From an uncultured virus (IMG/VR IMGVR_UViG_3300037067_021324) (lineage: Duplodnaviria; Heunggongvirae; Uroviricota; Caudoviricetes): a stretch of 20,000 nt of DNA. The translations under genes were made by a program, and so were the position numbers. Position 1 is the first letter of the stretch. Every line of letters starts with the position of its first letter. The notes under the pieces were generated by a model. That model saw nothing but the letters and a program-made list of their open reading frames with translations. It did no database searches and was not told the DNA's origin. The stretch is from IMG/VR virus record IMGVR_UViG_3300037067_021324; one strand, written 5' to 3'. This document shows, piece by piece, positions 7,645 through 19,757 of the stretch.

Positions 7645-8140
7645 AACAATTTATTTTAATGGAGAAAAATTAGACATTAAAGATGGTTCAATGAAGGATT
7701 TTTTAATATCTTCGTTAAATTGTCAAGTTATATTGGACAAAGATTTAATACTTGGTGATTTAATACATATTTTATATGAAATCAGAGAATTTATTAATTT
7801 ATATTGTTGTGAAGAATATGAAGTTGGAAGAACTTTAATAAATGCTGGAAGGTTGGCACAAGGATATGACTATTTAAAAATTTTTAAAAACGCAGAAGTA
7901 ACTACTGATGGATTTTTAAAAATAAACGTTCAATCTGATTTATGCTCTTATGAAAATTTGGGTAAAATACAAAATGTCTGTAATCTAAAAATAGTACTTG
8001 ACTCAAAAATTGTTGATGATGATGAAATTTTAAGAAAGGGGATTGAGTTAAAATCAGATTTTACTTTGTTAGAAATTATAGAAGTTTTATATGAAGACTT
8101 TTTATATTCTTTAGAAAGAGATAACATTTTAATTAATTAA
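7622..8140 (+). CDS. Hypothetical protein
   Basis: In-frame ATG at 7622 (MLEIKANK...) overlaps the clp 3' end only slightly and is more plausible than 7574. Confidence 0.7.
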   Translation: MLEIKANKTIYFNGEKLDIKDGSMKDFLISSLNCQVILDKDLILGDLIHILYEIREFINLYCCEEYEVGRTLINAGRLAQGYDYLKIFKNAEVTTDGFLKINVQSDLCSYENLGKIQNVCNLKIVLDSKIVDDDEILRKGIELKSDFTLLEIIEVLYEDFLYSLERDNILIN

Positions 8141-8305
8141 AAAATTTTTAATAATTTTATATCTGATAATCAAATAACTGAATGATTTTTTTTAAAAAAA
8201 TGAAAAAAAATTTGGTTTTTATTTTAGAATTTAATATTTTTGTATATATTTATAATGTTAAGAAGTAAAATTCTTAATAATAATGTTCTTAAAAATATTG
8301 AAAAT

Positions 8306-8435
8306 ATAAAGTGGCTATTGAAAGAGTTACTTCGGTTTATAATTGGTTCGACTCCAATCGTGCCCACCAGAAATTCTGGGCGTGATTTATTCCTGGAGAC
8401 AGGAATATTACACTCTTCAAAACTTTCCCTTTTAT
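8306..8435 (+). ncRNA. Y RNA (YrlA-like) with circularly permuted tRNA-like domain
   Basis: 5' AAAG-TGGCTAT-TGAAAGAGT-TACTTCG pairs with 3' ACTCTTCAA-AACTTTCC-CTTT. Inside: T arm ATTGG/TTCGACT/CCAAT, acceptor-like CGTGCCC-ACCA...GGGCGTG, and a TATTCCTG-GAGA-CAGGAATA hairpin. Lies upstream of ro60. Confidence 0.8.
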
Positions 8436-8439
8436 TTTT

Positions 8440-8466
8440 GTAACTTTTTTAAAAATATTGCGTATA
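8440..8466 (+). promoter_or_regulatory. GTAAC-N16-CGTATA promoter-like motif (copy 1)
   Basis: Same motif and 16 nt spacer at 15660, 15991 and 19620; AAC...CGT resembles ECF-sigma promoters. Confidence 0.7.
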
Positions 8467-8505
8467 AGATAATGTTAGTTCTTTAAAATAGAATTTATAA
8501 AAAAT

Positions 8506-8570
8506 TATAGTGGCGATAAATAGAGATACTTCGATGCAAATGAAAAAACTCTGTTTGAAAATTCCCTATG
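8506..8570 (+). ncRNA. Short Y-RNA-like element 2
   Basis: TATAG-TGGCGAT-AAATAGAGA-TACTTCG...CTCTGTTTG-AAAATTCC-CTATG; same conserved motifs as element 1 with covarying stems. Confidence 0.7.
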
Positions 8571-8579
8571 TTTAAAATA

Positions 8580-8655
8580 TTTGAGTGGCTATTAAAAGCA
8601 GTTCATCGCTATTAGTAAATTGCAAAACAAACTTGCTTTAAGACTTTCCCTCAAA
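8580..8655 (+). ncRNA. Short Y-RNA-like element 3
   Basis: TTTGAG-TGGCTAT-TAAAAGCA-GTTCATCG...TGCTTTAA-GACTTTCC-CTCAAA; same architecture as elements 1 and 2. Confidence 0.7.
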
Positions 8656-8661
8656 AAACAT

Positions 8662-8704
8662 AATAGGGACACTATGTAGAAATACATTATGTCCCTATTT
8701 TTTT
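8662..8704 (+). terminator. Terminator-like hairpin between the Y RNA array and ro60
   Basis: AATAGGGACA...ATGTA-GAAA-TACAT...TGTCCCTATT followed by a T run. Confidence 0.75.
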
Positions 8705-8733
8705 AATTAAATATTAACAAAAAATTAGATGTT

Positions 8734-10440
8734 ATGTCAAAATTTAACGAAAAAAGTGTGGCAAAAAACATAACCACAAATTATATGGGCGAGAAAGCTT
8801 ATATAGAAAAACCTGAATTTGAACTTGTTTCAATGCTTTTAACTTCATTTATGGAAGATTCATATTATGAAAAATCAAGTGATATGTTGGAAAGAATGAA
8901 GGCAGTATTAGAGAAAGTGGACACAAAATTTGCAGCAAAAGCTGCGATTTATGCGAGAAATGAATTTGGTATGAGGTCTATTTCTCATGTATTATCAATA
9001 GAATTATTGAAATATATTGGGGGACAGTCATGGGGAAAGAATTTCTTTGAATCTATTATCCGTAGGCCAGATGATATGACAGAAATCATCGCTTACTATT
9101 TTGCACAAGGGAATAAAAAGCTTCCTGCTGCAATTAAAAAAGGATTTGCTAAAGCATTTAATAAATTTGATAGATACCAAATTTCAAAATACAAAGGAAA
9201 AAATAAAAATGTTTCTCTTGTTGATGTTGTAAATCTTGTTCACCCACTTACAACCAAAAAAAATGGTGTTGTTGAAATAAAAAAGGATGAATATGCCGCC
9301 TTACTTGAAAAGAAATTAAAAAGTTTTGGGAAAAATGCAAATAAATATTCTGAAAAAATTGCAGAAATAAAAGCAAATTTAAATGAGATTAAAAATAATC
9401 AAGGAGATACTATTGAAATTTCAACTCTAAATGCATTGATGGCTGGCTTATTGAAAAACACAGAAACATGGGAAGCAAAGCTTTCAAAAGCCGGACAAGA
9501 AGCTAAATCTGATGAAGAAAAAGCAGAATTGAAAACAGAAGTTTGGAAAGATTTGTTTAAAGCAAAGAAAATGCCTTATATGGCTTTGCTAAAAAACTTA
9601 AGAAACATTTTTGAACAAGCTCCTGAACTTATTGATGAAGTTTGTGAAATGCTTGTTAATAGAAAAGCAATTGAAAATTCTTTGGTTCTTCCTTTTAGAT
9701 TTCTTTCAGCATATGAAGAAATAGAAAAACTCAAAAAAATAGGTACTTTCGAAAAAGATGAAGAAAATATTAGAAAGATTCTTGCTGCTATTGATGATGC
9801 TATTAAAACATCTGTTGTAAACTTGCCTACCTTATATGGAAAAACAGTTATTCTTTCCGATAATTCTGGAAGTATGACTGGTGATAGGGGTAATAGTTCG
9901 TTAATATCAAGATTGTCTAATATAAAAACAAGTGATATTGCAAATTTGTTTGCTGTACTTTATTGGCTAAAAGCTGATAATACTTTAGTTGGATTGTTTG
10001 GAGATAGATTAATATATCCAACACTTAACAGAAATGCTGGAGTATTTGAAAATTTTAAAGCAATTGATATCGAAAAAAACAAATGTGGGCCTAGCACTGA
10101 AAGAGGAATTTTTGATATGTTTGAAAAATTAATAAAAGAAAAAACTATAGTTGATTCAATTGTTGTTTTTTCTGACTGTCAAATAGGAAGTGGTTGTAAA
10201 TGGTATGACCAAAAAGGAAATCGTGGGGGAGAATTTAATAAATTATTTAATGATTATAAAAAAATAAGTCCAAAAGTTAGAGTGTATTCTGTAGATTTGA
10301 AAGGTTATGGAACAAACGTTTTCAATGATAATGTTTATAAAATTTTTGGATGGTCAGATAAAATATTTGACATCATGAAAGTTTTAGAACAGGACAAAAA
10401 TGCTCTTATTAAAATAATCAATGAATATGTTGATTTTTAA
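8734..10440 (+). CDS. Ro60/Rsr-like TROVE-domain ribonucleoprotein with C-terminal vWA domain
   Basis: TROVE motifs (TNYMGEKAY, AIYARNEFGMRS, RRPDDMTE, FD.YQ.SKY, DVVNLVHP, TWE, MPYMALLKNLRN, LPFRFLSAY), MIDAS DNSGSM, FSD.Q, VDLKGYG, IFGWSDKIF. Confidence 0.95.
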   Translation: MSKFNEKSVAKNITTNYMGEKAYIEKPEFELVSMLLTSFMEDSYYEKSSDMLERMKAVLEKVDTKFAAKAAIYARNEFGMRSISHVLSIELLKYIGGQSWGKNFFESIIRRPDDMTEIIAYYFAQGNKKLPAAIKKGFAKAFNKFDRYQISKYKGKNKNVSLVDVVNLVHPLTTKKNGVVEIKKDEYAALLEKKLKSFGKNANKYSEKIAEIKANLNEIKNNQGDTIEISTLNALMAGLLKNTETWEAKLSKAGQEAKSDEEKAELKTEVWKDLFKAKKMPYMALLKNLRNIFEQAPELIDEVCEMLVNRKAIENSLVLPFRFLSAYEEIEKLKKIGTFEKDEENIRKILAAIDDAIKTSVVNLPTLYGKTVILSDNSGSMTGDRGNSSLISRLSNIKTSDIANLFAVLYWLKADNTLVGLFGDRLIYPTLNRNAGVFENFKAIDIEKNKCGPSTERGIFDMFEKLIKEKTIVDSIVVFSDCQIGSGCKWYDQKGNRGGEFNKLFNDYKKISPKVRVYSVDLKGYGTNVFNDNVYKIFGWSDKIFDIMKVLEQDKNALIKIINEYVDF

Positions 10441-15122: not shown

Positions 15123-15656
15123 ATGAAAAAATTATTAGCAAGAATTTTAAGATTTTTATTAAAAAAAGTTGAAAAATCTATTCATCGTAAATATAAAATA
15201 GATGAAGAAGAGTTAAAAGGTAGAGAATGTTGTATTCAGGTGCCAGAAATAAAGGAGTTAACAGAAGAACAAAAAAAAATTGTAAACATTTATGTTTATC
15301 ATGAATCAATTTTTTCAGTAAATATAAAAAATATACCTTCAAGATTAATTCAAGATTATTGTTTTGTAGATAATGATAAAATAAAACTAGAAATTATTTT
15401 AGGAGGAGAAAATGATTTGGATGTTTACGAAGAACTCGAAAAGAAAAAATGTTCAAATATTTTTGAAGAAAATATGGAAAAAGAAAATATGGAAATAGAA
15501 ATATTTTCACACATTGGATTTAATAAAAAAATAATATTGAAGAACATTAAAGTTATGAAAGTTAATGCCTTTGAACATGGTAATAGCAAATCGAAAGAAG
15601 TATATAAAGCAAATGTATTAATTAAATATGATTCTAAGTATATTGAAAGATTCTAG
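15123..15656 (+). CDS. Hypothetical protein
   Basis: 177 aa ORF ending in TAG, followed directly by the GTAAC promoter-like motif. Confidence 0.7.
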   Translation: MKKLLARILRFLLKKVEKSIHRKYKIDEEELKGRECCIQVPEIKELTEEQKKIVNIYVYHESIFSVNIKNIPSRLIQDYCFVDNDKIKLEIILGGENDLDVYEELEKKKCSNIFEENMEKENMEIEIFSHIGFNKKIILKNIKVMKVNAFEHGNSKSKEVYKANVLIKYDSKYIERF

Positions 15657-15966: not shown

Positions 15967-15990
15967 TAATTAAAAAAACTTGTTTTTTTT

Positions 15991-16017
15991 GTAACTTTTT
16001 TATATTTTTGTCGTATA
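15991..16017 (+). promoter_or_regulatory. GTAAC-N16-CGTATA promoter-like motif (copy 3)
   Basis: GTAAC 15991-15995, CGTATA 16012-16017; upstream of the PTH2-like gene. Confidence 0.7.
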
Positions 16018-16933: not shown

Positions 16934-17002
16934 GGGGAAAATAGCTTAAAGTAGAGCGATTGCTTTGACAAGATGTTGGTGGTTCATATCCATCTTTCCC
17001 CA
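16934..17002 (+). tRNA. Degenerate tRNA-like gene (possible TTG anticodon, malformed anticodon arm)
   Basis: Acceptor GGGGAAA/TTTCCCC, D stem GCTT/GAGC, T arm GGTGG-TTCATAT-CCATC; anticodon arm only TTG-CTTTGA-CAA. Confidence 0.55.
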
Positions 17003-19036: not shown

Positions 19037-19110
19037 GGGAATGTAGCTCAGAGGCAGAGCAATCCACTCTAGATGGATTTTGGTCGCAGGTTCGAATCCT
19101 GTCTTTCCTT
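19037..19110 (+). tRNA. tRNA with CUA anticodon (amber suppressor 1)
   Basis: Acceptor GGGAATG/CTTTCCT (one U-U), D arm GCTC-AGAGGCA-GAGC, anticodon arm ATCCA-CTCTAGA-TGGAT (CTA at 19069-19071), T arm GCAGG-TTCGAAT-CCTGT; CCA not encoded. Confidence 0.85.
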
Positions 19111-19603: not shown

Positions 19604-19619
19604 TCTCCTTCCTTTTTTT
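19591..19619 (+). terminator. Intrinsic terminator
   Basis: GGAAGGGGA-TTAA-TCTCCTTCC followed by T7. Confidence 0.8.
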
Positions 19620-19646
19620 GTAACTTTTTTTGTTCTTTCTCGTATA
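19620..19646 (+). promoter_or_regulatory. GTAAC-N16-CGTATA promoter-like motif (copy 4)
   Basis: GTAAC 19620-19624, CGTATA 19641-19646; upstream of the second CUA tRNA. Confidence 0.7.
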
Positions 19647-19684: not shown

Positions 19685-19757
19685 CCCCCCATAGCTCAGT
19701 TGATTAGAGCAGTGGACTCTAAATCCATGGTCGAGAGTTTGAATCTCTCTGGGGTGG
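19685..19757 (+). tRNA. tRNA with CUA anticodon (amber suppressor 2)
   Basis: Acceptor CCCCCCA/TGGGGTG (one mismatch), D arm GCTC-AGTTGATTA-GAGC, anticodon arm GTGGA-CTCTAAA-TCCAT (CTA at 19719-19721), T arm GAGAG-TTTGAAT-CTCTC. Confidence 0.85.

Follow-up and report, generated by a model that had tools for sequence, protein, structure and literature searches.

The locus described here raises the question of whether a small phage RNA that is laid out like a permuted tRNA remains a single closed molecule or is opened to present a tRNA-like 3′ end. It lies in a window of 20,000 nucleotides (the whole stretch of DNA that was analysed), which is a piece of a 48.5-kb metagenome contig (L001). An earlier note on this DNA had described, between 8342 and 8407, a T arm, the 3′ strand of an acceptor stem, an A-CCA, a linker, the 5′ strand of the same stem and a hairpin in place of a D arm, and had proposed that RNase P and 3′ trimming could open the loop into a two-piece RNA with a chargeable end, as in permuted tmRNA. 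Our reading of the sequence confirmed all of these elements at their positions. Likewise upheld, by a YrlA layout, an rsr gene downstream and homologues in phages, was the view that this is a Y RNA whose tRNA-like module is circularly permuted. The proposed fate of the module fared less uniformly: for the opening into two pieces, the determinants of RNase P cleavage are in place and there is a precedent in M. smegmatis, but the ACCA is not conserved in the nearest relatives, and the charging of this RNA, termed Y RNA 1 in the following, found no support. We favour, with modest confidence, a single closed molecule in which the ACCA is a probable by-product.

The window appears to derive from a huge phage. 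Its G+C content is 25–33%, and its phage-like genes encode an SSB, a ClpB-like ATPase, T5orf172, HNH, a PTH2-like protein and a RidA-like protein. On the + strand, 8734–10440 encode Rsr, a Ro60 orthologue of 568 aa with a TROVE domain (Pfam TROVE, E = 1.3e-24). Homologues of this protein numbered 3113 at E <= 1e-20; it is about 50% identical to the Rsr of Saprospiraceae, the nearest named homologues being Bacteroidota, and its identity to proteins of deposited phages is at most 38%. Upstream of rsr, three tandem Y-RNA-like elements with a common 5′ motif and 3′ strand were recognised, all on the + strand, and the tRNA-like module is confined to the first of them. This element, the YrlA-type Y RNA 1 (8308–8432, ends approximate), ends some 304 nt before the same-strand rsr and shows 87% mean identity to two phage-contig homologues that also have Rsr directly downstream. 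It is preceded by a conserved block (8212–8305, + strand), to which similar sequence stands before the homologues in L316 and L320 and which contains a weak sigma-70-like match (9/12) at 8223–8250; we regard the block as the likely promoter region for Y RNA 1. Y RNA 2 (8506–8571) is short and YrlB-like, lacks a tRNA module and has the same 5′ motif and 3′ strand type. When folded (−10.9 kcal/mol, z −2.33), it forms a terminal stem from which a U bulges, as is predicted for Y RNA 1 as well, and it is similar to the second Y RNA of loci L003 and L004. Y RNA 3 (8581–8654), a short Y-RNA-like element with the same 5′ and 3′ motifs, is weakly folded (z −0.55). An inverted repeat followed by a T run (8662–8706, + strand), read from the sequence, resembles a terminator; a terminator scan returned none and did not call this repeat. 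The number of Y RNAs differs among close relatives, because one X3 DNA contig joins 8467 to 8661, so that Y RNAs 2 and 3 are skipped, and in G001, another relative, just one Y RNA stands ahead of rsr.

Within Y RNA 1, all features of which lie on the + strand, the T arm (8342–8358) consists of five base pairs (ATTGG/CCAAT) and the 7-nt loop TTCGACT and fits the tRNA T-loop pattern; in the subfamily alignment A2 it is 100% paired, with two covarying pairs. It is followed immediately by the 3′ strand of the acceptor-like stem, CGTGCCC (8359–8365, tRNA positions 66–72), which pairs with the 5′ strand GGGCGTG (8378–8384, positions 1–7) to give 7 bp, namely five G-C and two G-U pairs. Between these strands stand the A-CCA (8366–8369, read from the sequence as positions 73–76), for which the local base composition gives an expectation of about 0.002 at one fixed offset, and the 8-nt linker GAAATTCT (8370–8377) with a GAAA tetraloop at 8370–8373. 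In the window the GAAA is closed only by A8369-U8374, and U8377 is able to pair with A8366. By analogy with the YrlA of M. smegmatis, an RNase P site is predicted between 8377 and 8378. After a 5-nt spacer, a 6-bp hairpin, TTCCTG-GAGA-CAGGAA (8390–8405), occupies the D-arm position and lacks the GG of a D loop. The module is framed by the two strands of a terminal stem. The 5′ strand (8308–8327; AAAG-U-GG, then AGAGU), the putative Rsr-binding side, is nearly invariant in alignment A3, and the 3′ strand (8410–8432) belongs to a segment that is invariant from 8410 to 8433 in the same alignment; an exact-pattern scan with this strand returned the two phage-contig relatives only. The motif GTTACTTCG (8326–8334) is invariant in both A2 and A3 and was also found near Rsr in L003, L004, L074 and L086, and in the YrlA of Bacillus phage G. 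Passages of PMC4201824 describe a GNCGAAN0-1G motif situated close to the 5′ end in YrlA RNAs as a putative Rsr contact. Y RNA 1 has GGCTATTG at 8313–8320, with two departures from this motif, and the corresponding sequence of Y RNA 2 is GGCGATAA.

According to the same passages, YrlA RNAs are Y RNAs located within about 4 kb of a Ro60/Rsr gene and on the same strand, and their modules follow the order T arm, acceptor-like stem-loop, D arm (PMC4201824; also in parts of bioRxiv 10.1101/312249). The loop-closed mimicry of tRNA, given in the earlier note as a known trait of YrlA, agrees with the architecture published in these parts of the two sources, and both the module layout and the opening mechanism are already in print for the YrlA family. 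We tie Y RNA 1 to this published family because the YrlAs of phage G and CcrColossus, taken from the Table S2 coordinates of PMC4201824, share GTTACTTCG, the T arm and the acceptor hairpin with it. Both the phage G YrlA and the CcrColossus YrlA no. 2 carry the ...TTACTTCG motif, lie near a Ro60 gene and combine a 7-bp stem with an ACCA, which is followed by an A/T-rich linker of 21 nt in phage G and by a linker of 30 nt in CcrColossus. They differ from Y RNA 1 by their canonical D arms, by a hairpin resembling an anticodon arm and by the greater length of their linkers. Their encoded CCA receives no comment in the main-text passages or supplementary legends of PMC4201824. In Rfam, a gathering-threshold scan of the window and a scan of 7900–9200 at E <= 10 gave no family for the module, the only matches being tRNAs and one sub-threshold match to tmRNA_permuted, and a gathering-threshold scan of 20 related loci, including canonical YrlA modules, gave no module match either. 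Because canonical modules were also left unmatched, Rfam 15 holds no usable YrlA model. Between 8300 and 8440 neither Rfam tRNA nor ARAGORN matched, i.e. no cloverleaf was recognised.

Two bacterial YrlAs delimit the range within which Y RNA 1 has to be placed. The M. smegmatis YrlA, like the element described here, is found upstream of rsr and consists of a T arm followed by a 7-bp loop-closed stem. As reported in passages of PMC4201824, it undergoes cleavage by RNase P, nibbling and CCA addition, both in vitro and in vivo, and its opening yields two Rsr-bound halves; the idea of opening by RNase P with a CCA end is thus not new and was published for this RNA. Its CCA is partly encoded, with CA being added, and it has a D arm, whereas Y RNA 1, which is known from its sequence, encodes the full A-CCA and has no D arm. 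The YrlA of Salmonella Typhimurium, for which parts of bioRxiv 10.1101/312249 describe a crystal structure, resembles Y RNA 1 in its T arm, closed acceptor and Rsr-binding terminal stem. However, its stem of 6 bp is not cut by RNase P, while that of Y RNA 1 has 7 bp and a weak capped extension, and it possesses a true D arm forming an elbow with the T loop, where Y RNA 1 has a small GNRA hairpin instead. Because the hairpin at 8390–8405 does not qualify as a D arm, we file Y RNA 1, on the strength of its sequence, as a D-arm-less YrlA variant rather than as a plain member. The loss of the D arm together with retention of the T-arm/acceptor half narrows what the partner of YrlA must recognise.

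In the reading that we prefer, a YrlA-type Y RNA encoded by the phage has its tRNA-like effector module at 8342–8407. Its two ends would pair into the bulged-U stem, and the Rsr ring would bind there, as the family pattern suggests. The T arm, stacked on the 7-bp acceptor-like hairpin, would mimic the top half of a tRNA and give a partner that recognises tRNA a surface to dock on, as has been proposed for YrlA, with the small hairpin taking the place of the D arm. At the end of the acceptor hairpin, a GAAA-capped closed extension would be under selection and would have been weakened in the window copy. The ACCA would then have arisen as a CC/GG extension decayed, and the pre-existing A-CC would make one extra A unremarkable. 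Y RNA 1 would most likely be produced and used intact, as in Salmonella. That Rsr binds the RNA, that the module has a tethering role and that the molecule stays intact in vivo are features that we infer.

The six nearest relatives, comprising two phage contigs and four metagenome variant contigs, bear directly on the role of the ACCA. The two syntenic homologues, on G001 (372 kb; L245/L316) and G002 (229 kb; L320/L322), have Rsr directly downstream (49% and 50% identity, respectively). Alignment A3 puts the identity among the Y RNAs of the window, G001 and G002 at 87%; hardly any change falls in the T arm or in the strands of the terminal stem, while the flanks and the acceptor loop vary, the latter being the most variable part. 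The earlier note had tied its proposal to conservation of the ACCA in homologues, and none of the six relatives has CCA at positions 74–76. The acceptor stem of the G002 homologue (L320) is identical to that of the window and its loop reads T, CC, GAAA, GG, TCA. In the G001 homologue (L245) the first pair of the stem shows a compensatory change from C-G to A-U and the loop reads T, CA, GAAA, TG, T. The counterpart of ACCA is T-CAG in L245 and T-CCG in L320. The variant contigs are DNA from two other metagenome runs with depths of 2.6–4.6, and their changes are given here as found among the indels listed. Position 8369 is covered by five contigs, one identical to the window and four altered there: among the indels listed, A8369 is deleted in three variant contigs and changed to C in one. 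All four altered contigs carry T8374G, and T8375 is G in three. In one variant contig some of the listed changes would break acceptor pairs unless further indels shift them. The read runs X3 and X8 have no cover over 8348–8391.

Around the tetraloop, these sequences vary in a concerted manner. The GAAA is closed by A-U in the window, by C-G in one variant contig, by CC/GG in three variant contigs and L320, and by CA/UG in L245; the 73/−1 pair switches between A-U (window) and U-A (L320). Because the GAAA is retained while its closing pairs covary, the closed, GAAA-capped extended hairpin appears to be kept in this lineage, with the window copy as its weakest version. It is this covariation, around the GAAA and at 73/−1, that leads us to favour the closed form for the lineage. 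The stem of the D-position hairpin covaries, too, with a GAAA loop in L245 and a 5-nt non-GNRA loop in L320, and G8398>A in the variant contigs preserves its GNRA loop. This hairpin is known only from the window and the two nearest relatives; in the subfamily alignment, 8/10 sequences pass from the acceptor hairpin directly to the 3′ strand. An exact 25-mer spanning the T arm and the ACCA had no match in viral contigs, and a single-protein scan of viral contigs gave no confirmed close relative.

Folding calculations were compatible with the module and also revealed how loosely its end is closed in the window. Taken alone, 8342–8407 adopts both the acceptor hairpin and the one at the D position (−22.3 kcal/mol, z −2.48). 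In the whole 125-nt RNA (8308–8432), the tRNA-like fold (−29.9 kcal/mol) lies 2.3 kcal/mol above the MFE (−32.2 kcal/mol), which is itself only modestly below that of shuffles (z −1.88). The acceptor pairs have probabilities of 0.48–0.66 in this RNA versus 0.36–0.56 for an alternative CCAG/CUGG hairpin, which according to the earlier note could hide the CCA and which competes with the acceptor stem. The extension beyond the stem is weak in the window: it consists only of A8366-U8377 and A8369-U8374, flanking a 2x2 mismatch, and the latter pair has a probability of 0.09. The terminal stem between 5′ and 3′ ends may meet competition from a local hairpin of AGTRGY with GTTACT. The RNAalifold consensus for A2 was poor (−6.45 kcal/mol) and contained a possible local 5′ hairpin.

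What speaks against the closed form is that the window copy effectively carries a 12-nt loop on a 7-bp stem. The rival reading, which we regard as possible but fall short of calling probable, is that RNase P opens the acceptor loop in vivo, that the trailer is trimmed to A-CCA and that Rsr binds the two-piece RNA. Host RNase P would cut between U8377 and G8378, and exonucleases would trim the 8-nt trailer; the halves would be held together by the acceptor and terminal stems, and the resulting tRNA-like 3′ end would protect the RNA from exonucleases or engage a CCA-recognising partner. A 7-bp stem, a U at −1, a G at +1 and A73-CCA are determinants of RNase P. Y RNA 1 offers a 7-bp stem coaxial with a canonical 5-bp T arm, U-1, G+1 and A73-C74-C75, but it offers no D loop from which the elbow, likewise read by RNase P, could form. 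The three tRNA genes in the window all lack an encoded CCA, and the ACCA is hence not a habit of its tRNA genes. A precedent exists in the M. smegmatis YrlA, which was opened in vitro and in vivo and which, according to passages of PMC4201824, became an RNase P substrate through a loop on a 7-bp stem. The YrlAs of phage G and CcrColossus, with their ACCA and long linkers, fit the same picture. Against opening stand the six nearest relatives without CCA, in which the closed GAAA hairpin and an eighth base pair are preserved, and the consideration that an ancestral A-CC could well have gained one further A by chance. The non-conservation of A76 is nevertheless compatible with opening, because the M. 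smegmatis end is nibbled and its CCA added.

The case for opening was strengthened by the wider family. Viral contigs were scanned with a pattern of motif GTTACTTCG plus the T-arm consensus, and membership was assigned by features and direct parsing. The scan returned at least 123 stretches (97 with a narrower gap), and the T arm, acceptor hairpin and 5′/3′ strands recur in well over 100 viral contigs. Rsr-anchored loci commonly show a T arm with a complementary stem immediately behind it and then a D arm. In 91/191 sequences the seven bases ahead of TTACTTCG find a perfect complement downstream, compared to 37 on average and at most 52 in 200 permutations, which supports a terminal stem between the 5′ and 3′ ends across the family; the inner helix is 70% paired in A2, and in three of its pairs both partners have changed. 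Around the variable loop the strands are displaced by MAFFT, leaving the acceptor stem only 45% paired in A2, and because of this misplacement each sequence was parsed directly. For the CCA count, one module was taken per distinct 7-bp stem, the motif was required upstream and the contig of the window was excluded. This procedure gave 95 distinct complementary 7-bp stems, 42 of them with loops of at least 9 nt.

CCA was found at positions 74–76 in 11 of the 42 long loops, a number that none of 20000 within-loop shuffles reached, although counting distinct stems only partly removes the relatedness among contigs. C74 is present in 33/42 long loops, with CAA (8), CTA (4) and CGA (3) as further triplets, and CCA at other offsets within the loops occurs at 4/575 positions. 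An earlier count on the first set had given CCA in 8/37 versus 0.5 expected. Because the patterns did not involve the loop, this enrichment is not built in by the search. At least two lineages keep the N-CCA while their linkers change: in the lineage with stem ATTTTCC, G-CCA is retained with three different linkers, and in that with stem CCGGTCC, A-CCA is retained with linkers of 31 nt and 5 nt. In the AGAAAGC group, the stem is followed either by A-CCA and an A/T linker or by a GAAA-capped 3-bp extension that covaries (CGC/GCG vs GGT/ACC). The Rsr-anchored loci L002–L095, in contrast, count against opening, as none of their 26 distinct modules has CCA at 74–76. Owing to the family-wide enrichment and the floppy 12-nt loop of the window copy, opening remains a plausible alternative to the closed molecule that we prefer.

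Taken further, the enrichment would be explained if a sizeable subclass of phage YrlA-type RNAs were true permuted tRNA-like genes, with the N-CCA under purifying selection and the products opened by RNase P, two-piece and Rsr-bound. Lineages would switch between closed and open forms, and the window would represent a recent switch to the open one. We put this forward as a speculation that is rather unlikely to hold in full; if true, the displayed acceptor end could be a decoy, or a place to dock, for enzymes or defence toxins that have the 3′ ends of tRNAs as their target. Relative to the searchable literature, the new elements are the loss of the D arm in a phage lineage and the recurrent encoded N-CCA. 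The latter is far above chance in phage YrlAs, including two that were catalogued in 2014, and on the basis of these sequences processing of the M. smegmatis type, far from being an oddity, may be common among phages.

A more far-reaching reading holds that the opened CCA end is aminoacylated and serves in translation, like two-piece tmRNA or tRNA; we consider this very improbable. AlaRS requires a G-U pair at 3-70. In Y RNA 1 this pair is G-C, and the anticodon arm, a tag reading frame and pseudoknots are missing as well, and the chargeable end envisaged in the earlier note finds no support. The encoded A-CCA and the match to Rfam tmRNA_permuted might be taken in favour of charging, but this match scored 15.9 bits against a gathering threshold of 47 (E = 1), ARAGORN called neither a tmRNA nor a tRNA, Rfam gave no tRNA match, and A76 is not conserved in relatives. 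The likeness to permuted tmRNA lies in the layout: in two-piece tmRNA, too, the 3′ acceptor strand and CCA precede the 5′ strand and processing opens the loop, but tag ORF, pseudoknots and G3-U70 are all absent from Y RNA 1. Similarly, the permuted tRNA genes of Cyanidioschyzon merolae have a closed acceptor loop that is opened by RNase P/RNase Z (parts of bioRxiv 10.1101/312249); these genes, unlike Y RNA 1, yield real tRNAs with anticodon arms via a circular intermediate. Aminoacylation of the M. smegmatis YrlA was raised as a possibility by Chen et al. in passages of PMC4201824. Hardly credible, finally, is a chance likeness in AT-rich intergenic DNA or a decayed tandem tRNA gene pair, which could point to the modest whole-element MFE and the missing Rfam family match but is contradicted by the 87% conservation in two other phages with variable flanks and loop, by compensatory changes in T arm, acceptor stem and D-position hairpin, by the consistent linkage to Rsr and by well over 100 members in viral contigs.

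The survey of related loci yielded several further observations. In YrlAs of the gut Bacteroidales type (L016, L018, L023–L025, L027, L030, L031, L035, L036, L039, L055 and L080), an A-CGA after the 7-bp stem, nearly a CCA, is kept, and the next 17–18 nt are variable. Among loci L096–L218 (e.g., L113, L116, L130) and L318, many phage YrlAs with a 21-nt gap have an apparently complete anticodon arm, which lies between GTTACTTCG and the T arm and has a stem of 5 bp and a loop of 7 nt (e.g., CTGTTAA); these RNAs would thus carry all four tRNA arms as closed hairpins on a Y stem. In CcrColossus (L318), the tRNA-Gln given in the record at 109217–109284 (− strand) overlaps YrlA no. 2 of Chen et al. 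and is probably the result of a tRNA finder misreading the tRNA-like module of the Y RNA. At L003 (735–1045), whose Rsr is a relative at 59%, the first Y RNA has the same 5′/3′ motifs with an insert of about 250 nt and no T arm, and it may hold a different effector module. Seven loci (L159, L169, L183, L246, L267, L290 and L303) in which a T arm is followed by CATCTCC-ACCA and a terminator hairpin were rejected as Y RNAs; they look like 3′ ends of tmRNA, possibly prophage attachment sites, and do not enter the counts given above, as they are without the required perfect 7-bp closing stem.

Other features of the window lie outside the Y RNAs. Two of its tRNA genes (19037–19110 and 19685–19757) have the anticodon CUA according to ARAGORN and would read the TAG stop, which hints at TAG recoding elsewhere in the phage. 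When TAG was read as sense, the ORFs of the window were nearly unchanged; only 15123–15656 lengthened, to 15905, with three TAGs. The third, odd tRNA-like gene (16935–17002) was found by Rfam only (41.1 bits) and not called by ARAGORN, and it shows a shortened anticodon region and one acceptor mismatch. Furthermore, the 14-mer TTTGTAACTTTTTT has three exact copies, all of them intergenic and on the + strand: after Y RNA 1 (8437–8450), before the PTH2-like gene (15988–16001) and before a tRNA (19617–19630). Allowing up to two mismatches, eight matches were obtained versus 4.5 expected. The 14-mer, of which L320 has a near copy behind its Y RNA homologue, may represent a phage promoter or a motif located close to terminators.
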